From Ruminococcus sp. (GTDB lineage Bacteria > Bacillota > Clostridia > Oscillospirales > Ruminococcaceae), in the NCBI GenBank assembly GCA_021205185.1, contig JAJPYB010000011.1:33990-97989 (forward strand): a stretch of 64,000 nt of DNA, given 5' to 3'. Under the pieces are notes generated by a model. It was not told the DNA's origin. It did no database searches and saw only the letters and a list, made by a program, of their open reading frames with translations. The position numbers and the translations under genes were made by a program. This document shows positions 5,558 to 33,474 of the stretch, piece after piece; the stretch's first letter is position 1, and every line of letters starts with the position of its first letter.

Positions 5558-6006
5558 TAAGCTCGCTTCCCTTCCAACACGTGTTTAGTGAATTTTGCAG
5601 CTGCTCTTAAATCGTCGCTGTTTGGTCTTCCCTTATGAAGTGCTGTAAACTCACCTCGACAGTAGAAGCTATTGCTGTCAACTTTGATTTTTCGTTCCTG
5701 CAAATATTTTTTGATCTCTGGTAAGGCTCTTTCTGCAAGAGCAGAGGTTGAGAATACCACTACCCTACCAACCTTGCTTCTGTCAAGCGACTTAATGTAC
5801 TTCTTTACCTCTGAGCTGATTCCTCCCCAATAAACGGAAGCACCCAAAAACAGCACGTCAACGTAGTCGTTCAACGGTTCGGGAATTTTTTCCGTTTTAC
5901 AGCCTGATGTTTTTGCAATAACATCAGCAAGCTTTTTTGTGTTGCCTGATTTTGAAAAATAGCGAACAGCTATCTTTAATTCTTCCACAGTAATTCCTCC
6001 ATTCAT
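5557..6006 (-). CDS. flavodoxin-like protein
   Basis: 149 aa with an N-terminal SKSGNTKK FMN-phosphate loop. Its end overlaps the radical SAM start by 1 nt. Confidence 0.7.
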   Translation of the reverse strand: MNGGITVEELKIAVRYFSKSGNTKKLADVIAKTSGCKTEKIPEPLNDYVDVLFLGASVYWGGISSEVKKYIKSLDRSKVGRVVVFSTSALAERALPEIKKYLQERKIKVDSNSFYCRGEFTALHKGRPNSDDLRAAAKFTKHVLEGKRA

Positions 6007-7309: not shown

Positions 7310-8983
7310 ATGAAAATCAAAAGGCTTCTCGCTGTTTCCTTAGCAAGCTTATTGCTCTGCTCCTGCTCTGCAAAGGGCAATTCTTCCACCGTTGAAAAGG
7401 AAACTACACAAGCTTCTAGCACTACTGAGCAGACGACTGCCAAAGCCACAACTACTATCACGACCAAGGCAGAAAATTCTTCTGACAATAATGATAAAAA
7501 CGGCTCGCTCACATGCAAAAGCTCAGCTGAGATAGTAGCTGATATGGGATTCGGCTTTAATATTGGCAATTCGCTCGACTCGCAAAGCGGTACCGTATCG
7601 GACGTTTTAGAGCACGAAGCTGCTTGGGGAAATCCTGTAATAACTCAGAAGCTAATAGATTCTATTGCTGCCGCAGGCTTTACAGCCGTTCGTATTCCAA
7701 CCACTTGGCAGGACTTCATTTCAGACGACGAAAGCTACACCATTTCCGCCGAATATTTAGCAAGAGTTAAAGAGGTGGTTGACTATTGCTACGCAAATGA
7801 CATGTATGTAATTTTAAATACTCACCACGAGGATTGGCTTGAAAACGAAAATCTGATCTACAACAAAGAGGAAATTGCACAGGAAATTTTCGCTGTCTGG
7901 ACGCAGATAGCAGATTATTTTGCAGATTACGACCAGCACCTTATTTTCGAGGGACTTAACGAGCCCAGACTTAAAGGCACAGACATTGAATGGACAGGAA
8001 ACGAGGAAAGCTACGAGGTCATAAATTATTACGAGCAGATATTTGTTAATGCTGTCAGGGGAAACAGCAAGGGCTACAACAACGAGCGCTGCCTTATGAT
8101 AACTGGCTATGCGGCGTCAAGCTCTGAAAGCATTATGAGCGCAATTTCTATTCCCACCTACAACGGCGAAGCTGCAAGCAACCTGATAGTTTCAATTCAT
8201 TGCTATTCGCCTTATGACTTTTGTCTGAGTACTGCTCAGCAAACCTTCGACCCCGAAAGCTCTGCAGATACAAGCGCTATAGACAGCGTTTTTGAGGCTA
8301 TCAAGTCTGAATTTTCTGATAATAATATTCCTGTCGTAATTACAGAAACAGGTGCTACAGGTAAGGATGACGAACAATCTCGTACAAGCTGGGCTACATA
8401 TATGGCTACAAAGGCGGCGGAGTACGGCGTACCTATATTTCTTTGGGATAACGGCTCTCAAGGTACGGGAAGCGAAAATCATTGCTACTTTGACAGAAGC
8501 ACAGGTGAGCTTGTAGCAGAAGACTTTGTAAACGCTCTTATGCAGGCAAAAGCAGTCACCGAATGGGGTTGTATGCTTTCAAGCGAGGAAGCAGAGACAG
8601 AATCGCTTATAGGAGGCGAGGTTCTTGCTTCTTACGAAGACGGTCTGACAAGCGACGACGAATGGGACGCTTCTTACATTTGCCTTAGTGCTAAGGAAAG
8701 CTACTATAGCGACGAAAGCAAAATAGCTATTGTTTTTACCGGCAGCGGCGAGCCAAAAATGGTTCTTGACAGCGAACAGCTAAGTCTATGGTGGATGCCG
8801 GTAGACGCTGACAGCATAGAAACAGCAGGAGATAAAAAGGTTGCGTATTTTTCGTCGGACAGCATAAAATCGGTTGTTGAAAGCTACGGAGTGACAAGCT
8901 ACTCGCAGCTCAGAAATATGTCCTTCCTTTCGTCGGGCGGAACAATTACCACATATGAAATTTCGATGATCAACAACAGCTAA
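7310..8983 (+). CDS. lipoprotein GH5 endoglucanase (cellulase) with a Thr/Ser-rich linker and an uncharacterised ~150-aa C-terminal domain
   Basis: 557 aa with an LLLCSCSA lipobox. GH5 hallmarks are present: FEGLNEPR (acid/base Glu) and VVITETG (nucleophile Glu). Confidence 0.85.
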   Translation: MKIKRLLAVSLASLLLCSCSAKGNSSTVEKETTQASSTTEQTTAKATTTITTKAENSSDNNDKNGSLTCKSSAEIVADMGFGFNIGNSLDSQSGTVSDVLEHEAAWGNPVITQKLIDSIAAAGFTAVRIPTTWQDFISDDESYTISAEYLARVKEVVDYCYANDMYVILNTHHEDWLENENLIYNKEEIAQEIFAVWTQIADYFADYDQHLIFEGLNEPRLKGTDIEWTGNEESYEVINYYEQIFVNAVRGNSKGYNNERCLMITGYAASSSESIMSAISIPTYNGEAASNLIVSIHCYSPYDFCLSTAQQTFDPESSADTSAIDSVFEAIKSEFSDNNIPVVITETGATGKDDEQSRTSWATYMATKAAEYGVPIFLWDNGSQGTGSENHCYFDRSTGELVAEDFVNALMQAKAVTEWGCMLSSEEAETESLIGGEVLASYEDGLTSDDEWDASYICLSAKESYYSDESKIAIVFTGSGEPKMVLDSEQLSLWWMPVDADSIETAGDKKVAYFSSDSIKSVVESYGVTSYSQLRNMSFLSSGGTITTYEISMINNS

Positions 8984-13124: not shown

Positions 13125-13940
13125 TTAAGCAAAGAGAGAAGCTATCTGAGTTCGATAATTCATTCCCAGCATCAAAACGCCTATAACCGTTAAAACGGCT
13201 CCTGTGACAAGTCCTACGATGCGGTTGTTCACACGGTTTGCAAATCTTGCGGAAACAACAGACGCCGCAGATTCGGTCACGATACAAAGAACGAGCAGCT
13301 GCCAGTCGTCGAAAATAATAGTCGGGTCTATAAGCGAATGACTGACAAAGGCGATAAGCGCCGTAAAGGTCATAATAAACGTACTTGTGCCAACAGCCGT
13401 TTTTCGGTTCATTCGCAAAAAAGCTGTAAACACTACAAGCATCATCATTCCGCCGCCAGAGCCTACAAAGCCTGTTCCAAAGCCGATAGTAAGTCCGAAA
13501 AAGAGCGAGATTGCAACTGATTTAGCGTCAAGCTTTGCGCCCTGGGAAACGCTGTCCTCGTGAGAGGTGTCAGGCTTCAGCAAAAAGCGAATGCCTATTG
13601 CGACGCACAGAAAAAGTGAAAAGCCGCCTAAAACTACATTGCCGACCTCGAACGCTACAAAGCTTCCTAAAATACACATACTGACAATGCAAACGAGCAT
13701 TATCCAGCCCCGCTTTAAGTCAATGTTTTTATGCCTGATGTATATCGACGTTGTAAATGCCGAGCCTAAAATATCAGAAGCAAGAGCGATAGCCGTCGCA
13801 TGATAAGCTCCCGTTTCGCCGGCAAAGGTTGGGCACAGGACTATCATAATCGGAACCATAACAGTAGCTGCTGAAAGTCCGGCTAATCCTGTTCCCACTC
13901 CTGCGCCAAGCGCCGCTAAAAAGCACCATAAATATTCCAT
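13125..13940 (-). CDS. TauE/SafE-family (DUF81) anion exporter-like membrane protein
   Basis: 271 aa with about 8 TM helices and Gly-rich repeats typical of the family. Confidence 0.65.
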   Translation of the reverse strand: MEYLWCFLAALGAGVGTGLAGLSAATVMVPIMIVLCPTFAGETGAYHATAIALASDILGSAFTTSIYIRHKNIDLKRGWIMLVCIVSMCILGSFVAFEVGNVVLGGFSLFLCVAIGIRFLLKPDTSHEDSVSQGAKLDAKSVAISLFFGLTIGFGTGFVGSGGGMMMLVVFTAFLRMNRKTAVGTSTFIMTFTALIAFVSHSLIDPTIIFDDWQLLVLCIVTESAASVVSARFANRVNNRIVGLVTGAVLTVIGVLMLGMNYRTQIASLFA

Positions 13941-14081
13941 AGTAAAACCTCAATAATGGCAACCGATAAACTAAAACTTATGTGAAAAGCATTCAATTCA
14001 AGCCACAACACCAGCTATGTTTGCCACACTGCGTAAAGAATATCACACAATATATTAAAAGTCAAATGATGGGCAAATTTA

Positions 14082-14117
14082 CAAAAATAAAACGGAGCAA
14101 GCAAAACTTGTTCCGTT
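14082..14117 (-). terminator. hairpin plus T-run immediately 3' of tRNA-Ser
   Basis: Minus-strand sense: ACGGAACAAG-ttttg-CTTGCTCCGT followed by TTTATTTTT. Confidence 0.55.
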
Positions 14118-14119
14118 TC

Positions 14120-14208
14120 TGGCGGAAGCGGTGGGATTCGAACCCACGAGCCCGTGAGAGCTACCTGATTTCGAGTCAGGCCCGTTATGACCACTTCGAT
14201 ACGCTTCC
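14120..14208 (-). tRNA. tRNA-Ser (anticodon CGA), class II with a long variable arm and encoded CCA
   Basis: Reverse complement reads GGAAGCG...CCTGA-CTCGAAA-TCAGG...GTGGGTTCGAATCCCAC-CGCTTCC-GCCA. It has a 7-nt anticodon loop with U33, CGA and A37, plus the T-loop GTTCGAATC. Confidence 0.9.
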
Positions 14209-14390
14209 AAAAAAGTAAGTGAACCTACCTGCATTCAGCATAGCGAGAACACCGTGATTTAGATTATAGCACACTTTTAAAGCGAATGCAAGTGCTTTTT
14301 TACGGATTTTGGCGGTGGCGTTTAATCTGTGTTGCTATCCGCATTTAAGTATAACATATCAAATATGCAAAAGCAAGCTGATTCAGTTTT

Positions 14391-14519
14391 TTAAAAAGCT
14401 ATTGACAAGTCAGCATAGCGAATATGTTTCAGTTTGTCTTCTTGCCCTTCGTTTGCTGCATCAATCTTTTCCTGAACTTGCTTGTACAGTTCATCGCCTA
14501 ACAATTCTTCCAGTTTCAT
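14391..14519 (-). pseudogene. N-terminal fragment of a phage GP20-like scaffolding protein
   Basis: MKLEELLGDELYKQVQEKIDAANEGQEDKLKHIRYADLS matches the familiar N-terminus of phage scaffold proteins, then stops after 42 aa. A GGAGAAAGG RBS is present. Confidence 0.5.
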
Positions 14520-14827
14520 TTTCTTCCTTTCTCCGTCTGCTGTGTGCATTCGGCTGACAGTTTTATCGCCTTGTCCGGGCAAAATTTACGGTTTAGTTTT
14601 ATCGCCATTACCGTTTTTCGGGCAATAAAAAAGGACGTCGCATTTCGCTTCGTCCTTAAATAACTTTATTTTCTCTTGTGATGTGCTATTGCCAGTACAA
14701 TAAACCCGATAATCACTATAGAGACGTAAATGCCAACCGCCACGGTTCGCATTTCAAAATACAGATTTACAAAATCCATTTGCTTTCACCTAATTAAAAA
14801 GCACCCTCAGGTTTATTCTGAAAGTGC

Positions 14828-15022
14828 TTATGTTTTCTTCATTCTCACATCATCTTCGCTACCTTCGATAATTTCAAATATGTGAGGTGGAAACAAATAT
14901 GATTCGTCAAGTTCTGTCATAACACGATACCAGCCTTTTTCAATAGATAAAACTTTACATATTTTACCAGTAGGCATAGCAATACAATCTTTGCCAATAT
15001 ATTTTACAATCAATCTAGCCAC
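14828..15022 (-). CDS. small hypothetical protein (64 aa) overlapping the 3' end of the head-morphogenesis fragment
   Basis: ORF track. It overlaps the upstream ORF by 13 nt. No family was recognised. Confidence 0.4.
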   Translation of the reverse strand: MARLIVKYIGKDCIAMPTGKICKVLSIEKGWYRVMTELDESYLFPPHIFEIIEGSEDDVRMKKT

Positions 15023-15543
15023 TCCTTTATAAAGAAATCAAACTTGCCAATATTTTGGCACTGCACCCAATGTACTTCTGCACGGCGATCACCATCTAAC
15101 GTTTCAACTACACCATAGCCTTTAGCGTGCTGCCAATCTTCCGCTACTCCACCATATTTATTTGCGTATTTTTCAGCTTTTCTGAATTCAGTTTTAGTTC
15201 CTTTTCCTGCAAATACTTCAACATTTTGAATTTTAGTACCTTCAGCAAAATGAAACATTTCGCCTGTTTCAAAATCAATAATTTCATAATTTGCTGCTTT
15301 AGCACCGATGCTACGACCTATTTCAATATCGTCTAAAAGTATTATATCACTATCTTCTGAAGCTTTCAAGTATTTTTGTTTAAAATCTTCAAAATCTTTT
15401 GTCTTATCGAGCCCGAAGTATTCAGCTCGTGATTGCTGGCGCTTTAGTTCATCTTCATCTAACGCCCACCTTGCTCGCTGATTCATACAGCAGCGGCAGT
15501 TGCATACATTACGAGCCGAACCACCAACGCCGGGAGCTTTCAT
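15010..15543 (-). pseudogene. C-terminal fragment of a phage head-morphogenesis protein (SPP1 gp7 / Mu F-like) with an extra C-terminal domain
   Basis: It has the NVCNCRCC motif characteristic of the end of the gp7/MuF domain. The N-terminal several hundred residues expected for the family are missing, and a stop lies about 40 nt upstream in frame. Confidence 0.45.
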
Positions 15544-15764
15544 TTTTTCGCCGCCGACGGTGAGAGGAATTGAGGATTAAATAACAAGCAAGACACGGTA
15601 ATAGAGTACTACACAAAACTCAGTAAAGTAATATATGCTCGCCCGACCCCGCCCTTTGTTGGAAAGGTTTCAAAACACCACTAACGTGGCGTTTTGAGGA
15701 TTCTGAGAATGAGATTAAAATAGAGCTTGAAAAAATCTCAAAATAATTTCCACAACCCCCACAT

Positions 15765-15786
15765 TTCGACAAAAAATTCTGTCAAT
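15765..15786. promoter_or_regulatory. candidate Spo0A boxes upstream of spo0A
   Basis: TTCGACA at 15765-15771 is a perfect reverse complement of the 0A-box TGTCGAA. A near-box TGTCAAT lies at 15780-15786, about 80-95 nt upstream of the start. Confidence 0.45.
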
Positions 15787-15860
15787 AAATGGTAAAATAG
15801 CATTAAGAAAATAGCCTTGCTGATAGCGAGGGTTAAAATATTGACGAAAGGAATGGTTTT

Positions 15861-16616
15861 ATGAGCCAGAAAATCAAGGTTTTAATCGGCGACGACAGCG
15901 CCGAATTTGGGGTGAATCTTGCAAGCAGTTTACGAGGTATGGGGTTTTACGTAATCGCAAGGCAAAAGAATGGCGAGACACTTTTTGAAGCAATAAAAAG
16001 CGAGCAGCCGAATGTTGCAATAATCGACGCCGTTATGCCGAATCTCGACGCTATCGAGCTGCTCAAAAAATTAAACTCTGCAGGTTGCAAAAAACCGAAA
16101 ATTATTGTTGTAAGCTCGTTTGATAACCAGTTTGCAGAACGCTCGGTAATGGAGCTTGGCGCATCGTACTATATGCGAAAGCCGATTGATCCGCAAATTC
16201 TGACCGAGCGGATAAATTCGTTGCTTGAAGAATCGCTTGGCGAGGTTTCAATTCACTCGGCTAACTCCCAACTAAGACTTGAAATTAAGATCACAGATAT
16301 GATTCATCAGATTGGTGTTCCGGCTCATATCAAGGGCTACCACTACCTAAGGGAAGCAATTTTGCTTTCAATTAACGATTCGCAGATGCTGGAAAGCGTG
16401 ACGAAAATCTTGTACCCAGCCGTTGCGAAGAAGTTTAACACGACATCATCACGTGTTGAACGAGCGATTCGGCACGCCATAGAAATCGCTTGGGACAGAG
16501 GAGATATTGACACGCTAAATTCGTTCTTCGGCTATACAGTTGACGTTGCAAAAGGCAAGCCCACCAACAGCGAGTTTATTGCTCTGATTGCGGATAGGAT
16601 TAGGTTGAGGACATGA
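15861..16616 (+). CDS. spo0A: sporulation master response regulator Spo0A (receiver plus Spo0A_C DNA-binding domain)
   Basis: 251 aa. The receiver domain has GDDS and the [10 protein letters not shown] acceptor Asp. The C-domain reads [20 protein letters not shown]...[20 protein letters not shown]...[17 protein letters not shown], the Spo0A signature. Confidence 0.9.
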
Positions 16617-16740
16617 GTTAGTGGTGGGAAGGTTGCATAAATCCGTCAAAAAGGAGCAGTCTTTTAAGGGTTGAACTTAGGAATTTTCTGAGACAAACTA
16701 ATTTTTGAGAACGAGCTTTAAGCTGGCAAAGAAAATGCGG

Positions 16741-16968
16741 TCAGGCGAAAGCAGAAACGCTTTTGCTTGGCCGTATTTTTTGTTGTAAACATCGCAAATT
16801 CTTTTCAAAACGATTAGTGGTATTGCCCGCTTGATATTCTGTCAAAAGGTTCGCCGCTTCTCCTACGCTTTCCCAGCTTTCAGTCGTCTGCTGTCCTGCT
16901 GTCGCCATTTGACTAAGCTTATCTGACATTTCGTCTATAAGCTTAAACCGTGCGGACAATTCAGCCAT
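16741..16968 (-). CDS. hypothetical short ORF, possibly another phage gene fragment
   Basis: 75 aa (MAELSARFKLIDEMSDKLSQMATAG...). An AAAGGGGG RBS is present. No firm family was recognised. Confidence 0.3.
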   Translation of the reverse strand: MAELSARFKLIDEMSDKLSQMATAGQQTTESWESVGEAANLLTEYQAGNTTNRFEKNLRCLQQKIRPSKSVSAFA

Positions 16969-17044
16969 TTTGCTACCCCCTTTTTGGTAAAATAAAAGGA
17001 GCTACTATTTTTGTAGCTCCTGTTGAGTATTTTATGAAATTTTT

Positions 17045-17440
17045 TTATCTTTTTTCCAAGCCTGCGTCTTCTGCTAGATTGTTTCTGCTTTCAATAACGT
17101 TGTTATATGATTCGCTATCTCCATATATGCGGTCACCAAGCACATCTGACGCTAAGCTCGACACATCAATTTGTATACAAAAATCTGCGGTATGCTGCTT
17201 TCTCTCCTCGTCAGTGTTTTGTGACATACTATCCACATACGACATATCATCGTAATAGCCATCTATAAGGTCATAAGCTGTTTCACCGTCAAGCGTTCCG
17301 TCTAAATACTGGTCGGCTACGTTAACAGCACGAGTAGCTATAGAAATAGCTTTTTCACTAGCATTGGTTTCGTTTTCGGAACAGGCGGTAAAAAACAATA
17401 AGCTCAAAATGCAAACAATCGGTACTAAAAATTTCTTCAT
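17045..17440 (-). CDS. hypothetical lipoprotein
   Basis: 131 aa with the lipobox LLFFTAC. Confidence 0.6.
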   Translation of the reverse strand: MKKFLVPIVCILSLLFFTACSENETNASEKAISIATRAVNVADQYLDGTLDGETAYDLIDGYYDDMSYVDSMSQNTDEERKQHTADFCIQIDVSSLASDVLGDRIYGDSESYNNVIESRNNLAEDAGLEKR

Positions 17441-17607
17441 AGCAAGTCCTCCCTATATGTGTCATTTGTGTGCATTATATCACACTTTATAATGATTTTC
17501 CACAGGGATTTTTGATTGTTTGCAAATTGTTTACAATTAGAATAATCGTTTTCTGACTGCGTGCTTGTCTTCTTCCATTTCTGAGGCAATGTAGAACAGC
17601 TGTTGAC

Positions 17608-18000
17608 TCACCTCGCTGCCTCTTTTTCATACGCTTTTCTTACCGTCCGCATCAGTCCAACAATATATTCTTTATTCGCAATCGTCTTTTCACCAGCCTT
17701 GATTTCAGCTGCAATCTGTTTGCCAAAAATACAAGCGAAGATTTCTTTGTTTCCTCTCTTACAAGATGTTCTAATAGCGGTCGCAAATGCCCTTTCGATG
17801 CAAGCAATAGTTACACCGTGATTTTGAGCAATCGCAGTATAGATTTTGCCAGAAATATTGTCAAGCACTTCAGGCTCGCAAGCACTCATCACTACGGCCT
17901 CACGGATGTAATAATAGCCTTTTAGATTTGCAGGAATACCAAGTTGAAGAATGACGTTGGTTGTTAAGTTTTTTAGATCTGCAAGGTCGTGGTGGGGCAT
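17608..18000 (-). CDS. stand-alone Spo0A C-terminal (DNA-binding) domain protein with no receiver domain; divergent paralog A
   Basis: 130 aa: MPHHD...LQLGIPANLKGYYYIREAV...HGVTIACIERAFATAIR...KTIANKEYIVGLMRTV aligns with Spo0A residues ~150-250. It starts directly at the Spo0A_C domain. Confidence 0.75.
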   Translation of the reverse strand: MPHHDLADLKNLTTNVILQLGIPANLKGYYYIREAVVMSACEPEVLDNISGKIYTAIAQNHGVTIACIERAFATAIRTSCKRGNKEIFACIFGKQIAAEIKAGEKTIANKEYIVGLMRTVRKAYEKEAAR

Positions 18001-18051
18001 ATTATTTCCTCCTGTCTGTGCTGTGTTTCAGATTGTTAGCTCTTCAATGAA

Positions 18052-18081
18052 ATTGTATCATAGTGGGGTGAGGATTGTCAA
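18052..18081 (-). promoter_or_regulatory. promoter candidate for paralog A (TTGACA-N18-TACAAT with a TGn extension)
   Basis: Plus strand reads tgtcaa at 18076-18081 and attgta at 18052-18057. Confidence 0.5.
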
Positions 18082-18201
18082 GTGGTGGGGTGATAAAAAA
18101 TGGAGCAGTCTGAGAAGGCTGCTCCTTATTGATTTACTTTTGCAAATTATGCGGCATCCCCCGTCGCTAGCTTCTACTCTCTCATTTCAAGCTTAACTCT
18201 A

Positions 18202-18543
18202 TCAGCTACCAACGCTATAAACTCGCTGTTGGTCGGTTTTACCCTTTTCATCATCAATCGTGTAACCAAAGAAGGAGTTTTGTACATTGAAATCGCCCTC
18301 GTTCCAAGCAATTTCTATTGCGTAGCGAATCGAACGTTCCACCCTCGAAGAAGTTGTATTGAACTTTTTGGCAACCGCTGGGTACAAGATTTTTGTTACG
18401 CTTTCGAGCATCTGCGAGTCGTTAATTAAAAGAAGAATTGCTTCACGCAGATAGTGGTAGCCTTTCAATTTTTCTGGTACGCCTAGCTTAAGGATGAAAT
18501 TGGTGGTTAAAAGTTCTAACCGGTGAGTGTCGTGGTGGGGCAT
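18202..18543 (-). CDS. stand-alone Spo0A C-terminal domain protein; paralog B (core identical to Spo0A, C-terminal tail frameshifted)
   Basis: 113 aa. [51 protein letters not shown] is identical in protein to spo0A. The last ~12 residues are out of frame relative to a Spo0A-like tail (NSEFIALVADRVKLEMRE) that is still readable in another frame. Confidence 0.7.
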   Translation of the reverse strand: MPHHDTHRLELLTTNFILKLGVPEKLKGYHYLREAILLLINDSQMLESVTKILYPAVAKKFNTTSSRVERSIRYAIEIAWNEGDFNVQNSFFGYTIDDEKGKTDQQRVYSVGS

Positions 18544-18597
18544 ATTATTTTCTCCTGTCTGTGCTGTATTTTAGATTGTTAGCTTTTCAATAAAATT

Positions 18598-18627
18598 ATT
18601 TTAACATAAAAGTTTGTGGGTTGTCAA
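18598..18627 (-). promoter_or_regulatory. promoter candidate for paralog B (TTGACA-N18-TAAAAT with a TGn extension)
   Basis: Plus strand reads tgtcaa at 18622-18627 and atttta at 18598-18603. The 5' UTR is homologous to that of paralog A. Confidence 0.5.
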
Positions 18628-18782
18628 GAGATGTGGCAAAAAATAGAGCTATCTATAAAGGCTTTCATAATCCAAAATCCATACTATTTTGCAAAAGCGT
18701 AAAGGACTGTAGGGATGCGAGGACACAGTTTCCTTTTGAGAAACTTTCTCCACCTTGCCTTAAATTTTAGAGATAGAAGCCT

Positions 18783-19016
18783 AATATGCCTTTGTCTTCT
18801 TTGTAAGTTTTAGACTTTGTAGTGCTTCCAGGATTCTAAGAACGCCAAAAGCGTCAACGTCTTCGGAACATTATAATACATCAAAAGGCATTTGAACTTA
18901 GCTCTAGCTGACAAATTATAAATTTCATCCGGCTGCACAATTGAAATAATGCGAATAAGTGACGACAAATCAAACAGATCACCGTTTGAATTGACAACAT
19001 GGACTAATATTAACAC
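18783..19016 (-). pseudogene. gmd: internal remnant of GDP-mannose 4,6-dehydratase
   Basis: GDLFDLSSLIRIISIVQPDEIYNLSA compares with GMD GDLSD.SNL.RIL.EVQPDEVYNLGA. After a frameshift and a stop, ..EDVDAFGVLRILEAL..LKLTKKTKAY compares with ADVDAMGTLRLLEAIR..KKTRFY. Both ends are missing. Confidence 0.55.
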
Positions 19017-19043
19017 AATGTTGACTTTTAATCAGGAAAGCAC

Positions 19044-19688
19044 TTACATACTGATTACACCCAACCTGACAAACACGGGATACAGGTAACTTGCCCCAAA
19101 CACTCCCATTTTCTTAGGACCTGTAACGCCACCCTCCAAAGCCCTCTTATGTGCCATCTCGACGCTGCTTCTCGTCACAGCTTTTTCCTTCCGACTTATC
19201 TTCATCTCACCGCCGTGGACTGTATATGTAAACTTTAATCCCTTACTTATTTGGAATGGATATCCCTCGAATAAAATGATTGCATCCCACAGGTTCTCAA
19301 ATGTTGTCGTCTTAGTTAACTTTTCAACTGCGGCCCTTCGCTTTCTGTACAACTGAATTCGTTCAGCATTGACAGACAATTCTTCCGCCTTGTATGGCGG
19401 CTTTGCGTACGGCAGATAACTGTTAACGGAGGATTTTGATAAGCCTGTAATTGTCATGATTTCCGACACTGACTTCTCCTCCAGGAGTCTCTGCACATTA
19501 TCTGCTATTTCAGACCGGTAGCAGTTTGCAGTAATGAGTAGCTTGCGGATTTTTATTGGGTTCAGGTCAAGCTCATTTGCTGTCTTTTGGAGTGATTTTG
19601 TTTTGCTGTATATTTCAACCGCCGCAGTCATCATATCAGATAATATTTGCTGTGAATCATAGGTTGGCTTTTTCTTGTTTCTACTCAT
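19044..19688 (-). CDS. hypothetical protein with predicted helix-turn-helix segments
   Basis: ATG at 19688 with the SD AAAGGGGGG. 214 aa with HTH-like stretches (SLQKTANELDLNPIKIRKLL; SVSEIMTITGLSKSSVNSYL). No family was recognised. Confidence 0.5.
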   Translation of the reverse strand: MSRNKKKPTYDSQQILSDMMTAAVEIYSKTKSLQKTANELDLNPIKIRKLLITANCYRSEIADNVQRLLEEKSVSEIMTITGLSKSSVNSYLPYAKPPYKAEELSVNAERIQLYRKRRAAVEKLTKTTTFENLWDAIILFEGYPFQISKGLKFTYTVHGGEMKISRKEKAVTRSSVEMAHKRALEGGVTGPKKMGVFGASYLYPVFVRLGVISM

Positions 19689-19744
19689 AAAGGACACCCC
19701 CCTTTTTCCATTTCAATCTATATAAAATCCAAGGGGACAAGAAA

Positions 19745-19997
19745 TCACACCTTGCCGTTGTTGCTCATCCAATTTCTTCTGAATTTTGAAGGTGAGCATT
19801 CTTCTACCTTTTTAAACGTCCTGCTGAAATAGTTCTGGTCAACGTATCCACATTCGGTTCCAATCAACTCAACGCTCATCTCAGTGAATCTAAGCATTCC
19901 TTTGCAAGCTGGTCATAGGAACCGACAGAAAACTCATATGCAGATTTGAATAGCCGTGATGAGGATACACTGTCATTGACAAAGAGGCTTTTGACCG
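19745..19997 (-). pseudogene. C-terminal remnant of an AraC-family regulator
   Basis: My translation: ...MSVELIGTECGYVDQNYFSRTFKKVEECSPSKFRRN...*. This is the second HTH of the AraC domain. There is no N-terminal part or start codon. Confidence 0.5.
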
Positions 19998-20896: not shown

Positions 20897-22069
20897 TTCT
20901 CCCAGCTGAATATCAACCCCTGAAAAGCATCCGCCTGTTCCTTACTGGAAAACACTATCTCGATTTGATCCTCCACAGTGCAGTCATCTGAAACAATCAG
21001 TATATGCCGCTGTGAGAAATCATAATTGAATGTAACCGTCGGAGCTTCGAACAGTTCTCCATCCACATATATTTCCGTCACATTATCGCCGCTCTGCCAG
21101 CTGTAATCAATTCCAAGAATACCAGAAATGGAAAGGCCTGCGATTGTGTAGGTGGTGTCATCTATGCGTTCAAACTCATCTGCTGCAATATAGCGAAAGT
21201 TTTCAAACTTCACAACATTAGCATTCACAGGCTCTATATCATAATCCGGGAAGCCTTCAATGTCATACACTCCCTGGTCTATTACCTTTTCAACCACTTC
21301 TGCGTAGATCGCCTGACCAGCATCATTCGGATGAACACCATCATCAGTATAAGAATCGTAATCCTCAGAGAACGGCTCAATCGTGTCAGCAACTGGGATG
21401 CCATAATAATCACAGATCTCCTGTATTGTTACCATCTTCTCGGTGTAATCCTTCTGTGAGGATTCGAGTATGGAAATGATGGAGCAGTTTTCATACTTGC
21501 TGCTTATTGCCCTTATTATCGTTTCATAATAAAGGGGGAAGTCTGTCGTGGAATCGTTCTGGCCGTAACATATCACAGCCAAGTCATAATCAATGTCATC
21601 GTCCAGCTTCATAACCCTGCTGTAACCGGCATAGGAAGCGTTACCACCCATGGAAACATTGGTAAGACTAACAGTCCCTCCGTATTGTTCTGCAAGGTAT
21701 GAGTTGAGCAGGGTCGTCCATCTGTGTGATTCATCGCTTGCACCGGATGTTGCCCCAATGGAATCCCCGACTATCAGGATATTTACATCATAACCCTTGT
21801 CGAGTTTCTCATAAAAGCTTGAATTAACGATATCCTCTTGTCTTGCAGCTTCTTCTGCCTCAGATGCTTCCTCTTGAGCTTTCCGTTCGGCATCCAGTTC
21901 CTCTTGGAGGCTTCGCAGATAAGCTGATTGTTCTTCCTGCTGGATGTGGTCATAGTAGAGCATTCCTGCAAGACCAACAGCAAGAACAATAATTACAATT
22001 GTTATAATGATGTTAAATGTACGGCTAGAGGAATACCCCCCGCCTATGGTGGTGATGACTATGCGACAT
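20893..22069 (-). CDS. SGNH/GDSL esterase 1; the N-terminal leader and TM anchor are out of frame at a G6 tract (uninterrupted ORF 20893-21963)
   Basis: GDSIG and DDGVHPN motifs are present. The ATG at 22069 has an AAGGAG SD and encodes MSHSHHHHRRG, then the G tract. The TM segment NIIITIVIIVLAVGLAG lies in the catalytic-domain frame and is joined only if the tract is G5 or G8. Confidence 0.7.
22036..22041 (-). repeat. homopolymeric G6 tract (C6 on the plus strand); candidate slipped-strand switch
   Basis: Read directly: gaata-cccccc-gcc. Confidence 0.9.
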
Positions 22070-22198
22070 TTTCCTCGTCTCCTTCATTACATTGTTACTC
22101 TATTTCAAGCTGCTGCATCAGCAGCCGTACTTTCTCCTTCTTCTCGTCCGAGACTACTTTCTCAAGCATCTCTTTTCTTCTGCTCAGCCCTCTGAACT

Positions 22199-23202
22199 TT
22201 ATGTTTTCTTCTTTCCGTACAACCACGGTGCATATTTGTTGCTGAACAGTACAATTGGAACGATAATAAACAAAACTGCAATTGTCGCGGAAAGAAACCA
22301 GAACAATTCAGATCTGCCAGGCAAAATTAATACTGTTAAACGCATCATGGCAGCCCTACAAATCTTGCATATAGCAAACTGCCACACATATATTACAATT
22401 GAATTTCTTCCGCACCAATTCAAGTATGAGGAGTCTCTTAACCATCCTGCAATGCCCCACACGCCTGCAATTCCAAGAAGAGCTGTAACCGCAAACAAAA
22501 GGAGATTACCATACTCATTGTCATACATTGCCACAGGCGAATTTAAATCAACAACACAGAAGAAAACGATAACCAATATGGTACCAATAAAACCATTAAT
22601 ATACGAATTTCTGAATCCGAGCTTTTCCTTAAAAGTCTTTATCTTCTCTCTTCGGCTGCCGAAAACATACCCGCATATGTAAAAGAAGAACGCCATCGGT
22701 ACAATACTAATATAGGTAATTTCAATCCCATTTTGACTGAACAGCAGCAAAACAATAATCGCTACAATATCAACAGCAACAGTAATGATAAGTCCTTTGG
22801 ATTTGGTCAAATCAAGCACCATCGTTAATGCAAGATACAGCACAGACACGAGAAACAAAACTGGCAAAAACCAATAGTCGAAAATAAAGCTAAGAGGATT
22901 TGGCAAACTTCCACCAGCTGATAAGTTATCAACAACAGTTACAATATATTGCACAACCAGCAACGTTACCTGCGGAATCAAAAGAGAGCGAGCTTTCTTT
23001 ATGTACTGCGAATACCCCCCCGATATGGCTTAGCCGTCATTCCGGACAGAAAGAAAAACAACGGCATATGAAATGCAAGAATAATCTTGTTAAGATAAAA
23101 ATCAAGATTACCACAGCAGTGTCCTGTAATAACCAAAAGAATTGCTATGCCTCTGGCTACATCTATTTGTTTATCTCGATTCATAAAATTGCCTCCAATC
23201 AA
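22199..23202 (-). CDS. acyltransferase family 3 (AT3) O-acyltransferase 1, split into two ORFs (22999-23202 and 22199-22981) at a G7 tract
   Basis: The N-terminal piece reads RDKQIDVARGIAILLVITGHC...FHMPLFFFLSG, an AT3 signature. The downstream 260-aa piece is polytopic membrane. G8 or G5 fuses them (..KPYRGG-YSQYIKKARSLLIPQV..). Confidence 0.75.
23015..23021 (-). repeat. homopolymeric G7 tract (C7 on the plus strand)
   Basis: Read directly: aata-ccccccc-gat. It coincides with the AT3-1 frame break. Confidence 0.95.
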
Positions 23203-23261
23203 TACATGATTTCAGATCTCAATTCATTATTATCATTGTAAAAATATATGAATTTATTATC

Positions 23262-24785
23262 TCAGTGTTTACCAATCAGTTGGCAAACTTTCTTAATCAT
23301 CCATTTAAACTCATCCGTCCAAAAGCCTAACAAAAGGAACAGCACATTAATCACAATAAATACAATTATGGCCGCTACAATCCATGAAAGCCACCCATTT
23401 ATACTAAAAAGACATACAGTAATATGAGTAAAATATCCAAGAGCGGATACAATCATAAATCTTAATAAATATGTTATATAATAATTTTTAGGCGACCTTT
23501 TAAACCCGTACTTGAATACAATATAAGGATCATACCAAACTGTGGTAATTAACCTGGCAACCAAAGTGGCAAATACAACACCAAATACACCCATTCTGTT
23601 AACAAGGATAAAATCAAGTGCCAGATTAATTATTGCCATTACAACTGGCCTGAGTTTGCCGTACCAAAAAAGTCCATACGTGTTCCGAAAAGCAGAATTC
23701 ACACTAAGCATACCAAGCGTATAAAAATTCATTGATATAGCCCAAACACAAATTTCGCTTAACTGATACTCTGTTCCTATCCAGACATCAATAAATGGAT
23801 TCATCAGCGCCCACAAACAAATCGTACAAACCCCGTAAATCCAGAAATTAAAAAAGTCTAGCCTTTTAAACAGGGTATGATTGAAACTATCACTTTCCGT
23901 TGCCGTTGCATTTCCTACACTGGCAGTGAAACCTGAAACAATCTGTGACAAGAGACTGTTCAGGGCATTCGTTATCATAGTATAGTTGGAATAATAACCA
24001 TTTATAATTACCCCCAAAAATCTGGAAATAATTATACCATCGGTACTGTTGAGAAGCGTTGTCCCGACCTTGTAAAGCGATACTGCAAAAACATTTTTCT
24101 TTATACCGTTTTTTTCCTCTGCGTCAAGTTTGTAATCATACTTCTTCTTTATATAAGGATATCGTTTGTTACATTCATGCGATACATAAAGATTTTTTAC
24201 CAGTGTAATTACTGTATTAACCAAAAGATAAAGGATGAAATTATGTGTAACTGACAGCATAATACACTGAAATAGAGCTAAAGCGATTGAGCAATAATTA
24301 TTAATTTTCGTAAGCACATATGCTTTTTGATCGCTTGTAATCAACAAACTCTTATACGACCAAAAATAGCTTATCCCAGAATTCAGGACAAATAAAAGGT
24401 ATATAATTCTTATTGATGAAATATCCGGCATTTCACTTACCAGATATTGCAGGAAAGGTGTAAGACACGCACCAACAACAAGAACCACGGTTCCAATGAT
24501 GTAGTATATTTTTGAATACAAGCGCATCAGTGCGTTAATTTTCTTCTTATCACCGTTTGCCAATGGTTCATATAAACTAAAAGGGATTGCTAGACCAATT
24601 CCAAGTTCAGCCAAAGAAAGCATGGAAATGATATTTGTAAACAGACCATTTACACCTACATATTCCGCACCTAATTGCTTGACCAGAACCGTTCTTGTAA
24701 TGAAAGTTAAGACCGTTACTAATCCCTGGTTTATAAAAGCGTATATTATATTTCTCGTTGAATTCTTTGTCCTTGAATTTTCCAT
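23262..24785 (-). CDS. wzx: Wzx-type oligosaccharide flippase (MOP superfamily)
   Basis: 507 aa with about 12-14 TM helices. The N-terminus KNSTRNIIYAFINQGL..L..F..R..L...LG.EY.G is typical of polysaccharide biosynthesis/flippase proteins. Confidence 0.8.
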   Translation of the reverse strand: MENSRTKNSTRNIIYAFINQGLVTVLTFITRTVLVKQLGAEYVGVNGLFTNIISMLSLAELGIGLAIPFSLYEPLANGDKKKINALMRLYSKIYYIIGTVVLVVGACLTPFLQYLVSEMPDISSIRIIYLLFVLNSGISYFWSYKSLLITSDQKAYVLTKINNYCSIALALFQCIMLSVTHNFILYLLVNTVITLVKNLYVSHECNKRYPYIKKKYDYKLDAEEKNGIKKNVFAVSLYKVGTTLLNSTDGIIISRFLGVIINGYYSNYTMITNALNSLLSQIVSGFTASVGNATATESDSFNHTLFKRLDFFNFWIYGVCTICLWALMNPFIDVWIGTEYQLSEICVWAISMNFYTLGMLSVNSAFRNTYGLFWYGKLRPVVMAIINLALDFILVNRMGVFGVVFATLVARLITTVWYDPYIVFKYGFKRSPKNYYITYLLRFMIVSALGYFTHITVCLFSINGWLSWIVAAIIVFIVINVLFLLLGFWTDEFKWMIKKVCQLIGKH

Positions 24786-24812
24786 AATACGTTTCGCTCC
24801 AAAGTCACATGC

Positions 24813-25980
24813 TTAATGCATTATTATGTGGTAAATATGTCTAATAGCTCTATACAAATAGTTTCCTCGCATTTCGCGATTAATCATACTCCAGCTTTTA
24901 TTTTCAATGTTTTTCATCAGCCTCATCCTCTTCGGATTCTCTTCAGGATGTATCCATACATGTCTGCTTCTGTCTTTTAGGTAATCCAATTCAACTGTAT
25001 GATAATTCAGTTCTTGCTTGATTTCGTTCCAGACTTTCTGCCCTTGTAAACTTGAAACAATCACTGCACTAATTCCCATATTTTCATTCTTTTCAAGAAG
25101 TTCTCCAGTATATCCCCAAAAATCAGCTAATGTAATATCCGCTATCCGCGGAAGTTTTGCATATTTGCAATGATAGCACGATTCCCTCAAATAAAAATTT
25201 CTAAGGAATCCAAATTGAAAATCATTCTTTTCACTAGTAGTGCAAATTCTTTTATTATTTTTAAGCTCAAATGAAATATGGTTGGGATTCCACCCAAATC
25301 CACCTCTCTTATCTCGCCAGCATGTACTAATAATACGGGAATTGTATTTTTTTTCCAAGTATTCAATATATTTTTTATATACCAATTGCGATGGTACACC
25401 ATGACAAACCACCTCGGTTGTTACCAAATTAGGAGAACGCTGTGTCCCTATACATTTATATAGTGCTGCAACTTGACATGGGGTTCCAGAAAAGAGAACA
25501 TATTTTCCATTCGCCAGATCTTCTTTTACTGCATTATAACATTCGCCCATTTGACTCTGTAAGTATTTTGATTTTCGAAAAGCTTCGCACTTATCTAAAG
25601 TATCAGCCCTGCCATGGAAAACGTCGAAAGGTTTTTCATACATAGCACCATATACAATACCACCCTTTGATATAATACATTTAGCAATTGGCCAAAATAC
25701 TCCGCCACTAGAACTATTCATACAGATTGTATTGTCGTTATTATATGCTGCATATACACCTAATGTTTTGTTTGTGTTATTCACTTCATTTTTCATGCAG
25801 CAAACGCTAACACACTTCCCACACCTTATACATTTCTGTCTATCAATGATTGGATAACGAAAACCGCTTTCATCGGAAGCCATTCTAATGCACTTAACTG
25901 GACACACATTTACGCATCCCTCACATCCTCAGCACATTTCTTTTTCAATTACAAATTTTTCATCCGTCATTTCTTTTCTC
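24813..25980 (-). CDS. FrhB-like (coenzyme F420 hydrogenase/dehydrogenase beta-like) Fe-S protein 1, with an in-frame TGA at codon 14
   Basis: The ATG at 25980 has a GAGGAG SD: MTDEKFVIEKEMC-TGA-GCEGCVNVCPVKC. A second cluster, CIRCGKCVSVC, follows. It is paralogous to 26034-27221 and 42004-43166. The track ORF starts at a GTG after the stop. Confidence 0.65.
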
Positions 25981-26033
25981 CTCGACTATAAAACTTATCA
26001 TCGTGGAAATCAGAAATTCGTGGCAAAACTATA

Positions 26034-27221
26034 TCAGTTGAACTTAAGCCTATTTTTATACTTGTTCCATTCTGAATATAATTTCTTCAAGAACAGCTTT
26101 GCCTTAGATGCCTCGGACTCTTTCCTGCCTGTAATCTCATGAATCAACACACAGAAGTCCTCTTTTTGGTACCTGCTCATAAATTCATCTCGATTGGCTT
26201 GAAATGTTTTACATCCTGACAGCCAGCCAAAAACAGCTCTTCCTTTCATTTGATATTCACTGAATACCAAATGCTCCTTGATTGCGTCAAATAGTTTACA
26301 TCCCTTCTCGGAATTAAGCGCAATCATGGACAGTCCTTCTCGCTGATCTTCAGTTGATGCATGATGAGCCTCGATAAAATTGTCAGAAAGCGTCATATCT
26401 CCCATTCTCGGCAGATAGGCGAATTGACAATTGTAGCATGAAGGCCGCAGTCCGTATGATTTAATAAAGCAAAGATTGAACTCATCATCATATGCTTCTT
26501 TCGAGATTTTTCTTCCATCAGATAGCACTGTAGTAAAGACTACAGGATTCCACCCATGGCTCTTATCCCGATAGTAATCAACAACTTCTGATCCTTCGGT
26601 TTCTTTTATAGAAGAGCAAAACTTATCAAAAGCCGCTGTTGATGGCACACCATGACATTTCAAATCACAGGTATAAAGATTATCAAAGTCTTTTCCCAAA
26701 AACGAGTAAAGACCGGCAACCTGACAAGGAGTTCCTACGAATAATACTGGTTTCCCTGTTTTTAATTTTTTTAAACATTCTTTATATGAATTTCCAATTG
26801 CACTTTGGAAATACTTTGAAAAACGCAACTTATCTACATCTTCGTAGTCATCTATACAGGTGTGTCTGATATCAGAAATATAATATTTTTCTGCTCCAAA
26901 TACATACCCCCCCCCAGATAAAATTTTATCTGCAAGTAAACTGAAAACTCCTCCGGAAGAACTCTCTCTTCTAACGCTAATATCACTGTTATAGCAGTTT
27001 ATCGCCCTCACAGTGGAGAATCTTCGCCCTATATTCGTTCTGACCCAGTTGGCAGAAGGACAAACTTTTTCGCACTTGTGGCATTCAACACATTTATCCT
27101 GGTCTACCACCGGATACCGAAAGCCATGCTCATCTGCTATCATTGCAATTGCACCTACTGGGCAAGCATTAGAGCAGGCCTCACATCCATAGCATTTACT
27201 TTTTCGAGTAATTCTAATCAT
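26034..27221 (-). CDS. FrhB-like Fe-S protein 2 (intact; contains an in-frame G9 tract)
   Basis: 395 aa with an N-terminal 2x CxxCxxCxxxCP ferredoxin motif (CYGCEACSNACP, CVECHKCEKVCP). It lies next to a pyruvyl transferase gene, a commonly seen pairing. Confidence 0.75.
   Translation of the reverse strand: MIRITRKSKCYGCEACSNACPVGAIAMIADEHGFRYPVVDQDKCVECHKCEKVCPSANWVRTNIGRRFSTVRAINCYNSDISVRRESSSGGVFSLLADKILSGGGYVFGAEKYYISDIRHTCIDDYEDVDKLRFSKYFQSAIGNSYKECLKKLKTGKPVLFVGTPCQVAGLYSFLGKDFDNLYTCDLKCHGVPSTAAFDKFCSSIKETEGSEVVDYYRDKSHGWNPVVFTTVLSDGRKISKEAYDDEFNLCFIKSYGLRPSCYNCQFAYLPRMGDMTLSDNFIEAHHASTEDQREGLSMIALNSEKGCKLFDAIKEHLVFSEYQMKGRAVFGWLSGCKTFQANRDEFMSRYQKEDFCVLIHEITGRKESEASKAKLFLKKLYSEWNKYKNRLKFN
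26907..26915 (-). repeat. homopolymeric G9 tract (C9 on the plus strand), in frame, encoding Gly-Gly-Gly
   Basis: Read directly: tacata-ccccccccc-agata. It codes SGGGYVFGAE. Confidence 0.95.
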
Positions 27222-27228
27222 AATTTTG

Positions 27229-28416
27229 TCACCTCTTTATAATAGAATAGCTGTTGTATGCTTCTTTAATATATTCTGGCATAACGGCATTCAAATGAGT
27301 GCGGATATCATTCTGGTTTTCATTCAACCATAAAAAAGCGTTAGCTATTTGCTCTTTATCGTCTACTTTGTCCACCTTAAGCACATAATTTTCATCTGTA
27401 CCAAACAAATCCCTTGCGATTCCGACTGATTTAACGGAATAACCGATAACCAGCGTTGGAACACAACTGGAATAAGCCGCAATAGTAGAATGAGTTCTTG
27501 CACCAATAAACATCTGACATTGCGAAATGATATATTTAAGTTGAGCCGCATTGTAGTCTTCCCCAAGCAAAAGCATATCCCCATAAGACTCGCAGGCTTG
27601 ATACAGCTTTTCCAAAGGCTTATAATCCGAGCCTCCCATTACATGAGGAACAAAGATTGGAGTATAACCCTTTTCAATTATCTTCTTAACCATATTTTGA
27701 TATGCTGCAAAAGTGACCTCGGCACTTCCTCCATACTGCGGATCAAGGATTAAAGAACTAAGATTAACTCCCACCATTTTACCTTTTTTCCACCCTTGGG
27801 GAAAATCAACCACCTCTAAAGGCATTGCAAAAGCCGGATCGGGATAGTATCTTATATCTTTTTTAGAATACTTAGTGGTCAAATTTTGTTTACTTGTTCT
27901 CTCCCTCACAGTTATAGCATCGAATTGAGAAATATCGCTTATCACTTCATCAGTAATATCATTTTCACCAAATGAGCAATCATACATAATCATCCTGGCA
28001 TTCGCCTTTATTCTTATCACCGAATGAAGCTCATGCAAATTTTCAAACATATTATAATGGATATCATAATTGTCTCCACCCACACATATGACCACATCGC
28101 TCTTTTTACATATGTCAATCAGTTTCGAGTATCGAATACTGGCAGCAGCAGTCCGGAGCTTTAGAACTTTTTTAAAAAACGTATAAATTGCTCCCATAAT
28201 AAGATTTTTCTTGGTCACAGTTGACTTTCTAATAAATCCCTTTGTATTAGGTAGTGGTGGCAGTTCTTCTATGTCAGCATCATTTGAGACAATCCACACC
28301 TCTGCATTGGATTCATTGTGGCATATGATTTCCGATATCCCTCTGGCTAATGCCTCTGAACCGCGATTGTTTTTTACTGTATTCAAGATAACTATGTATT
28401 TACTCATGTATAACAC
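27229..28416 (-). CDS. polysaccharide pyruvyl transferase 1 (WcaK/CsaB-like)
   Basis: 395 aa with N-terminal VILNTVKNNRGSEA, VICVGGDNYD and C-terminal IGARTHSTI motifs typical of the family. Confidence 0.8.
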   Translation of the reverse strand: MLYMSKYIVILNTVKNNRGSEALARGISEIICHNESNAEVWIVSNDADIEELPPLPNTKGFIRKSTVTKKNLIMGAIYTFFKKVLKLRTAAASIRYSKLIDICKKSDVVICVGGDNYDIHYNMFENLHELHSVIRIKANARMIMYDCSFGENDITDEVISDISQFDAITVRERTSKQNLTTKYSKKDIRYYPDPAFAMPLEVVDFPQGWKKGKMVGVNLSSLILDPQYGGSAEVTFAAYQNMVKKIIEKGYTPIFVPHVMGGSDYKPLEKLYQACESYGDMLLLGEDYNAAQLKYIISQCQMFIGARTHSTIAAYSSCVPTLVIGYSVKSVGIARDLFGTDENYVLKVDKVDDKEQIANAFLWLNENQNDIRTHLNAVMPEYIKEAYNSYSIIKR

Positions 28417-30547: not shown

Positions 30548-30562
30548 TCCTCAACCTCGTGA

Positions 30563-31540: not shown

Positions 31541-31571
31541 ATATTGCTCACCAAAATTTTATCAATTTATC

Positions 31572-32510: not shown

Positions 32511-32526
32511 AGTTAATGCTCCTATT

Positions 32527-33348: not shown

Positions 33349-33474
33349 AATCAATCTCCTTTTACTCCGCATATTTCAGCGATATTATGCTTGATTGGCT
33401 TCAAGGTTCTGGTATAAGCACAGAAACGAATGAATATTAAAGAATGTAGTCTTTCAGAGAATTCTACTTATCCC

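Follow-up and report, generated by a model that had tools for sequence, protein, structure and literature searches.

Two diverged types of receiver-less Spo0A_C genes beside spo0A in Ruminococcus sp., one of them with a conserved +1 frameshift ahead of the last Spo0A helix

In a 64,000-nucleotide (nt) stretch of contig JAJPYB010000011.1 from Ruminococcus sp. (hereafter the window, whose positions are used throughout unless another contig is named), two genes, here called A and B, were found to encode Spo0A's DNA-binding domain (Spo0A_C) with no receiver domain; they lie on the strand opposite to the full-length spo0A gene, about 1 kb downstream of it. Patterns of substitution among their counterparts in other genomes indicate that A-type and B-type genes are functional and under purifying selection, not debris, and the six B-type copies share an extra base that places the last Spo0A helix in the +1 reading frame. 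Whether A and B serve as phosphorylation-independent Spo0A effector modules, type B giving a truncated form and, via a +1 frameshift, a full-length form, is in our judgement about an even call. The two genes, their upstream regions and spo0A are located as follows:

15861-16616, plus strand: spo0A, full-length, 251 amino acids (aa), Response_reg and Spo0A_C by Pfam
17608-18000, minus strand: paralog A, 130 aa, a stand-alone diverged Spo0A_C in a single frame (Spo0A_C E 5e-21)
18001-18081, minus strand: promoter and unstructured leader of A with an AGGAGG ribosome-binding site; promoter TTGACA-N18-TG-n-TACAAT at 18081-18052 (consensus scan)
18102-18125, minus strand: GC-rich hairpin, then ATTTTTTAT, between B and the A promoter
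18202-18543, minus strand: paralog B, frame-0 open reading frame (ORF), 113 aa (Spo0A_C E 9e-34, profile positions 2-92 of 104)
18544-18627, minus strand: promoter and leader of B; promoter TTGACA-N18-TG-n-TAAAAT at 18627-18598 (consensus scan)

An initial annotation, made from the sequence of the window, had described two receiver-less Spo0A_C genes that begin with MPHHD beside spo0A. The hidden Markov model search that it recommended was run, and both ORFs matched Spo0A_C, which was their only Pfam match; neither a Response_reg receiver nor a phospho-acceptor is present. Against TIGR02875, A scored 73 bits and B 131.6 bits, both below the equivalog cut-off of 200 that the spo0A gene of the window exceeds with 282.6 bits. 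The MPHHD start of both proteins coincides with the start of the crystallised C-domain constructs 1LQ1/1FC3. The TTGACA-N18 promoters and homologous leaders of about 60 nt that had been noticed upstream of the genes were also recovered: the two promoters are the best two sigma-70-like (sigma-A-type) sites in the region, each with 11 of 12 consensus positions and an extended -10 TG, and the leaders are homologous over about 55-60 nt and carry an AGGAG ribosome-binding site. Both leaders are less structured than shuffled controls, and a riboswitch or attenuator is therefore unlikely. The hairpin and T-run at 18102-18125 likely form an intrinsic terminator of B, as read from the sequence; the hairpin scan listed the plus strand only, and the minus-strand T-run was read by eye.

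Comparison with Spo0A showed how differently the two genes have evolved. The B protein differs from the Spo0A of the window by three substitutions in a 53-residue core, as had been reported, and is 77% identical over 111 aa, while the synonymous sites are saturated (synonymous difference, pS, 0.76; nonsynonymous difference, pN, 0.15), which agrees with the earlier view that B is no recent copy of spo0A. The A protein is 33% identical to Spo0A and 38% identical to B, with a pS of about 0.74 between A and B. Only the promoter/leader regions and the first codons of A and B are alike, and the proposed tandem duplication of a promoter-plus-gene module had to be given up. Conservation was scored over an invariant set of 53 alignment columns, each at least 95% conserved among 98 canonical Spo0A C-domains. 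B-type proteins retain 44-46 of the 53 residues and A-type proteins 25-28 (25 in the A of the window). The recognition helix of Spo0A_C is kept in B (SRVERSIRYAIE, with SRVER) and not in A (IACIERAFATAIR), where T207V, S210A, R211C, R217A and H218T are found in the recognition region and E213 and R214 are retained (B. subtilis numbering). The C-terminal helix of A is in frame yet diverged, with 4 of 10 invariant tail residues. Both types share the MPHHD start together with H162L, H169N/K and I170L, and thus form one receiver-less family. The canonical protein nearest to B is the Spo0A of the host lineage itself (73%, vs at most 68% for others), which points to an origin of the MPHHD family from the spo0A of this lineage or of a close relative, as far as sequence similarity goes. 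In the phylogeny called for in the initial annotation, the neighbour-joining tree, with its long branches, gave no resolution of the origin of the family.

To define the distribution of the family, a word-indexed search of 5.8 billion proteins and a strict DNA pattern search over 185,579 species-representative genomes were employed. Within these databases, family members were found only in the window, in GCA_965296165.1, GCA_020861145.1 and GCA_021199305.1, and in two Logan metagenome runs. The protein search returned A-type counterparts (P0002-P0004) that are 77-80% identical to A, from three Ruminococcus metagenome-assembled genomes (MAGs), and, for type B, five 113-aa clusters plus P0006, a 120-aa in-frame relative; the strict family-start pattern matched a single species-representative genome, U.9_3, and had no match in IMG/VR. 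Within about 10 kb, GCA_965296165.1 carries spo0A together with three genes of type B and one of type A, beside an integrase and a tRNA-Ser gene. The order in GCA_020861145.1 is B, A, the spo0A promoter region and the contig end, and in GCA_021199305.1 (MAG Ruminococcus sp. U.9_3) A is followed by the spo0A 5' region, another contig holding a B gene and a 3' fragment. Family genes have spo0A or its 5' region as a neighbour in the window and in L001/L004, and also where the contigs L002 and L003 end. The family is linked to spo0A wherever a contig shows the neighbourhood, with the locus order rearranged between genomes. The spo0A genes of the window and of GCA_965296165.1 share 85% DNA identity, with a pS of 0.58 and a pN/pS of 0.04.

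Among these copies, the B body (codons 1-102, six copies) shows a pN/pS of 0.18 at pS 0.33-0.61, and the A-type genes (four copies) 0.21-0.30 at pS 0.20-0.44, in agreement with the purifying selection inferred earlier for B. Given the pS of 0.58 between the spo0A counterparts, the paralogs have persisted across roughly species-level divergence. Judged by these sequence comparisons, A and B are two old, anciently diverged paralog types with counterparts at similar divergence in other genomes.

Recombination has also shaped the family. Two unrelated promoter/leader modules are spread over A-type and B-type genes regardless of type (upstream regions of the window and of L001-L005), and the first five codons (ATGCCCCACCACGAC) are near-invariant in DNA in nearly all family copies. 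P0006 (L006 3617-3979) is chimeric, its 5' half resembling B and its 3' half spo0A. The shuffled leader modules and this chimera show that recombination is active among family members and with spo0A, and it is this recombination, not a recent whole-gene duplication, that accounts for the similarity of the two upstream regions in the window. P0006 stands in a different context, about 2 kb from a SPOB_a/HATPase_c histidine kinase gene (L006 6190-7401).

The central feature of type B is the position of its last helix. Read in frame 0, B is an incomplete DNA-binding domain, a point missed in the initial annotation; its frame-0 ORF follows Spo0A_C up to ...DDEKGK and then runs through 11 non-conserved, out-of-frame residues that end in ...DDEKGKTDQQRVYSVGS at the stop codon. 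The last Spo0A helix is absent from frame 0 and is encoded in the +1 frame after GGT-AAA-A, and deletion of one A from GGT AAA ACC gave an end-to-end alignment with 1LQ1 (E 6e-40). Two further features of B are thus defined:

18174-18236, minus strand: B tail in the +1 frame, equivalent to the last Spo0A helix (PTNSEFIA...D...L) by homology to Spo0A
18234-18255, minus strand: candidate frameshift cassette GAT GAT GAA AAG GGT AAA A, then CC (GATGATGAAAAGGGTAAAACCGACC), with a Shine-Dalgarno (SD)-like AAAGGG, 1 nt, and a slippery AAA-A

The extra base occupies one identical site in all six B-type copies from four genomes, as AAAA in five and AAAG in one, and the AAAG copy is identical across three independent assemblies (one NCBI, two Logan). 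This reproduction in independent assemblies indicates that the frameshift is inherited and is not an error. An AlphaFold2 model of frame-corrected B, made with no alignment, had a pLDDT of 54 and was unusable; homology to 1LQ1/1FC3 was used instead.

Several lines of evidence suggest that the +1 tail is itself maintained as coding sequence. Its 60 nt hold only 1-13 differences between copies whose synonymous sites differ by 33-61%. Counted per 8 codons, third-position changes drop from about 5-8 to about 2 from a point six codons ahead of the shift site, and these six codons contain zero synonymous changes among the B-type copies. Over the 16 conserved codons of the tail, six of ten single-nucleotide changes are synonymous in the +1 frame, where 2.8 were expected (Monte Carlo P = 0.03), and none of eight variant codons is synonymous when read in frame 0. 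The tail has a pN/pS of 0.25, and among the copies it retains 7-10 of the 10 Spo0A-invariant tail residues, all 10 being present in the window. Translation of the tail as a continuation of the B body is the most economical reading of these sequences. Such translation would require a +1 shift at AAA-A/G, at which the P-site Lys-tRNA could re-pair perfectly: slippage from AAA would yield a Lys codon in the five AAA-A copies and in the AAA-G copy alike. The AAAGGG lies 1 nt upstream of the AAA and is invariant at synonymous sites in five of six copies; the same bases encode the conserved KGK. In prfB, which encodes RF2, a programmed +1 frameshift involves CUU-U P-site re-pairing and an SD-like sequence a few bases upstream, and by analogy the AAAGGG spacing in B would favour +1 slippage.

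That B-type genes are decaying pseudogenes, or that the frameshift arose in sequencing or assembly, has been largely refuted, and the probability left to it is next to negligible. Six diverged copies, drawn from four assemblies, carry the same frameshift; one of them, with G in place of A, was recovered in three independent assemblies, and a body pN/pS of 0.18 at pS of about 0.5 is incompatible with neutral decay. What lends the error explanation some substance is that canonical spo0A genes of other species in metagenomes also show an extra A in the same KGK/PTNSEF homopolymer, many of them in low-coverage or error-rich assemblies. A metagenome scan for the frameshift pattern returned 15 such contigs (L007-L021, e.g. 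L010 2735-2786 and L017 5535-5586) from other gut Clostridia, with one extra base in the A-run between K-G-K and PTNSEF; the receiver is visible in several, none belongs to the MPHHD family, and several of them are Illumina contigs of low coverage or assemblies visibly rich in errors (VOF* records). These extra bases are probably errors, and they could also mark a real indel hot spot in spo0A.

A second explanation holds that the +1 tail is a separate 26-aa peptide (MMKRVKPTNSEF...), started at the ATG ATG that is formed within GAT GAT and complementing the truncated domain in trans. All six copies have an ATG-ATG (or ATG-GTG) in the +1 frame, and two frame-0 nonsynonymous changes there are synonymous or preserve a start codon in +1. 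We nonetheless consider such a peptide highly improbable: the informative substitutions number only two, the ATGs are not preceded by a Shine-Dalgarno sequence, and frameshifting is the simpler account of one extra base by which the ancestral KGK-PTNSEF junction is restored exactly.

Fairly unlikely, in our estimate, is that B yields only the truncated 113-aa core, acting as a phosphorylation-independent competitor or repressor at 0A boxes, with the +1 tail conserved for other reasons, for instance through gene conversion, whether between copies or with spo0A, or as an element at the RNA or DNA level. By default decoding stays in frame 0, and nothing that would strongly stimulate frameshifting is evident; the family has documented recombination and mosaicism, and the body by itself is under purifying selection. 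In B. subtilis, moreover, the A257V substitution in the last Spo0A helix abolishes spoIIA/spoIIG activation and leaves abrB repression intact (summarised in PMC9195935), so that impairment of this helix is compatible with retained repression. The block-wise count of changes does not fit this explanation well, since it remains low over about 24 nt after the frame-0 stop and climbs steeply close to the +1 stop, and neither does the preference of tail changes for +1 synonymy with zero synonymous in frame 0. B tails also have a feature of their own, LVADRVKLE where spo0A has LIADRIRL, and hence have not simply been overwritten by spo0A, and loss of a whole core helix may destabilise the fold.

Several observations weigh against decoding of the shift and against the effector reading built upon it. 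The frame-0 A-site codons, ACC and GCC, are common and not rare, the slip site is not followed by a stop codon, and a candidate downstream hairpin showed no covariation, had z = -0.5 and has a pair broken in three copies. AAA-A is a short slippery site and could slip with very low efficiency. The B-type sample comprises only six copies, all from four related genomes, and the synonymous-bias test is modest at P = 0.03. Third positions of the tail change more slowly than those of the body, which could reflect either dual-frame constraint or gene conversion; with recombination active in the family, gene conversion could explain part of the tail conservation. The in-frame P0006 and a 4-nt compensating deletion in L005 show that the frameshift is not obligatory for the family, and the box scan found no exact 0A box within the promoters of A or B. 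The idea that a rare, 'hungry' A-site codon drives the shift was ruled out, ACC and GCC being ordinary codons here. The L005 case (5818-5976) is a B-type 3' fragment in which a 4-nt deletion nine bases upstream offsets the extra A and brings PTNSEF back in frame, and its tail resembles that of spo0A. Repair of the frame is thus possible, and the frameshift is tolerated or preferred in this lineage and not unavoidable.

Under the reading of A and B as effector modules, expression of each gene would be independent of the phosphorylation input to Spo0A, given its strong sigma-A-type promoter, its unstructured leader and its good ribosome-binding site. B retains nearly all Spo0A-invariant residues, including the recognition helix, and should therefore bind 0A boxes without phosphorylation. 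The isolated DNA-binding domain (DBD) of Spo0A binds genuine targets without phosphorylation, including the upstream region of C. difficile spo0A (PMC3485338). This lends support to the phosphorylation-independent action proposed for both genes in the initial annotation as far as B is concerned; A has lost about half of the invariant residues, including much of the recognition helix, for which reason its binding to 0A boxes is not to be assumed. The sequence of A suggests that it probably has a different 0A-box specificity or none and probably serves a different DNA target or a protein partner, although it is clearly selected. Candidate targets upstream of spo0A are the following:

15765-15771: exact 0A box TTCGACA (minus-strand TGTCGAA), about 95 nt upstream of spo0A, from sequence reading
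15780-15786: near-box TGTCAAT, upstream of spo0A, beside the exact 0A box

In the box scan the former was the sole exact TGTCGAA near the locus. The region that holds both boxes (15765-15786) is 89-91% conserved, directly downstream of the A-type genes, in L002 and L003. B protein could occupy such boxes, for example those upstream of spo0A, independently of phosphorylation input. Frame-0 decoding would give the 113-aa protein without the last helix, a competitor- or repressor-like form, and a complete 122-aa domain, and with it a fully active effector, would come from slippage of the P-site Lys-tRNA by +1, from AAA onto AAA/AAG, which the SD-like AAAGGG may assist, so that B would yield a set ratio of the two forms; an effect of B on the Spo0A regulon is suggested by these features. 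A stronger proposal makes B a recoding switch in which the slip frequency sets the ratio of repressor to activator and responds to the translational state, which would open a way into the Spo0A regulon that needs no kinase; in starvation, for example, a lack of aminoacyl-tRNA for the next codon may then alter the slip frequency. We regard this proposal as rather unlikely.

The initial annotation had also reported prophage debris near the genes and had raised a mobile-element origin with manipulation of sporulation. The following features flank the locus on the side of spo0A:

14120-14208, minus strand: tRNA-Ser(cga), bordering the phage remnants
14391-14582, minus strand: 63-aa ORF in the prophage remnant area, no database match
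14828-15022, minus strand: small phage ORF (phrog_34144, E 1.8e-10)
15010-15543, minus strand: 177-aa piece related to a minor-head/head-morphogenesis gene (phage contig MT835521.1)
16741-16968, minus strand: possible N-terminal fragment of a tape-measure gene (phrog_1068, E 2.7e-4, weak)

The debris is real: residues 14-61 of the 177-aa piece match, at 65% identity, a stretch inside the 562-aa head-morphogenesis gene of MT835521.1, a real phage contig in which that gene follows the terminase and portal genes, and the phrog_34144 match agrees. tRNA-Ser genes border the locus in the window and in GCA_965296165.1, in the latter also with an integrase, and the phage remnants, tRNA-Ser genes and integrase together mark the neighbourhood of spo0A as an integration hot spot. 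Carriage of A and B by a phage or other mobile element which manipulates host sporulation would account for the remnants and tRNA-Ser that flank spo0A in the window and for the integrase and other tRNA-Ser that adjoin the A-type gene in GCA_965296165.1; PF08769 has moreover been reported as enriched on mobile elements of gut Firmicutes (PMC6907783), and PHROGs contains a Spo0A_C-like family of 111 positions, phrog_24603. However, IMG/VR scans returned no member of the MPHHD family, and the matches in INPHARED were at most 38% identical. The one match inspected, MT835504.1 (L024, 19196-31555), is listed as 'Bacteriophage sp.' and proved to be bacterial chromosome with NAD kinase, ArgR, RecN, SpoIVB, full-length Spo0A and glycogen synthase, and Spo0A_C matches in phage databases should thus be treated with caution. 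Among canonical relatives the Spo0A of the host lineage comes closest to B, in four genomes the genes keep their place beside spo0A with differing pieces of mobile elements around them, and no intact mobile element was found around A and B, the remnants only flanking the locus. A cargo role is accordingly improbable in our view, and a phage origin of the MPHHD genes is possible but unsupported.

On the other side of B lies one further ORF of interest:

19044-19697, minus strand: 217-aa ORF with weak helix-turn-helix hints and of unknown function

Pfam, PHROG and NCBIfam searches gave no significant match for this ORF. Its counterpart stands directly upstream of a B-type gene in GCA_965296165.1, with 79% nucleotide identity to L004 12530-13253; an ORF of 215-217 aa with weak helix-turn-helix hints (window 19044-19697; L004 12634-13281) is thus found just upstream of a B-type gene in two genomes. 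An Rfam scan of 13900-19800 returned the tRNA as its sole match. Farther away, 22000-40000 of the window is a long minus-strand gene cluster with a G+C content of 0.33-0.39 vs 0.40-0.46 elsewhere, which starts with acyltransferase, GDSL and hexapeptide-transferase genes and is probably a variable surface-polysaccharide locus; the corresponding flank of GCA_965296165.1 is also rich in glycosyltransferases. At 7310-8983 the window carries a GH5 cellulase gene (Pfam), consistent with a fibre-degrading Ruminococcus.

Spo0A is the textbook example of a regulator set by phosphorylation, and selected receiver-less modules would add a phosphorylation-independent layer that would bear on sporulation or stationary-phase control in gut Clostridia. 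If the conserved +1 frameshift is decoded, it would be a rare example of +1 recoding outside prfB, and its products, one with the activation helix and one lacking it, would offer an obvious contrast in function. The recoding switch, if true, would make this the first bacterial developmental transcription factor with a described programmed +1 frameshift; the literature on Spo0A frameshifting was not searched. Should the frameshift go undecoded, the locus still provides a clean natural test of the need for the last Spo0A helix.

Receiver-less Spo0A_C proteins are, at the level of annotation, widespread and known from sequence databases, and no functional description of them was found in the literature. 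A full HMMER scan with A returned 3,585 proteins at E <=1e-3, and the best matches of A outside the family were receiver-less proteins with 2-4 tandem Spo0A_C domains (P0128-P0134, P0147) or stand-alone proteins of about 130 aa. Metagenome proteins of this kind (stand-alone forms such as P0170, P0174 and P0183, tandem forms such as P0128-P0134) show only 27-43% identity and have no MPHHD start. In many cases a 'Spo0A_C-only' protein in the databases is a partial or split canonical gene. One example is P0118, the 123-aa Spo0A_C ORF of a recN-spoIVB-linked canonical spo0A whose receiver is a separate 136-aa ORF; it occurs on at least 24 contigs from different samples, with the split confirmed where inspected (L025 and L026, 3573-4372; L027 2007-2378 is also listed), and may be a naturally split or inactivated spo0A of some gut lineage. 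In P0212, an unrelated stand-alone Spo0A_C protein of 130 aa, the C-terminus ...RRADKQRIHSEN... reads like an out-of-frame PTNSEFI, a further frameshifted tail whose position differs from that in type B.

Set beside known systems, A and B carry the same Spo0A_C fold signature as canonical Spo0A, and B keeps the SRVER helix and has its tail in the +1 frame. Canonical Spo0A differs in possessing a receiver, whereas A and B are receiver-less, with their own constitutive-looking promoters and an MPHHD start, the recognition helix being rewritten in A and the gene frameshifted in B. A and B share their boundaries with the engineered or isolated Spo0A-DBD fragments of B. subtilis and C. difficile; those are laboratory constructs, in contrast to a natural, selected gene family of two diverged types. 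Extra spo0A paralogs have been reported in 11 of 118 Spo0A-encoding genomes of Clostridiales (Galperin et al., bioRxiv 10.1101/2022.02.25.481979). Taken with PMC6907783, this shows that in gut Firmicutes genes derived from Spo0A can exist in several copies and can move with mobile DNA; the portions of the two sources at hand give paralog counts and Pfam enrichment only, with no receiver-less architecture, promoter modules, selection or frameshift. B differs from prfB in having neither an in-frame stop nor a rare A-site codon, in having no known autoregulatory logic and in being a transcription-factor paralog, and it resembles prfB in its conserved frameshift, in a P-site codon that could re-pair, AAA-A/G, in the SD-like sequence upstream and in the apparent selection on the downstream frame.

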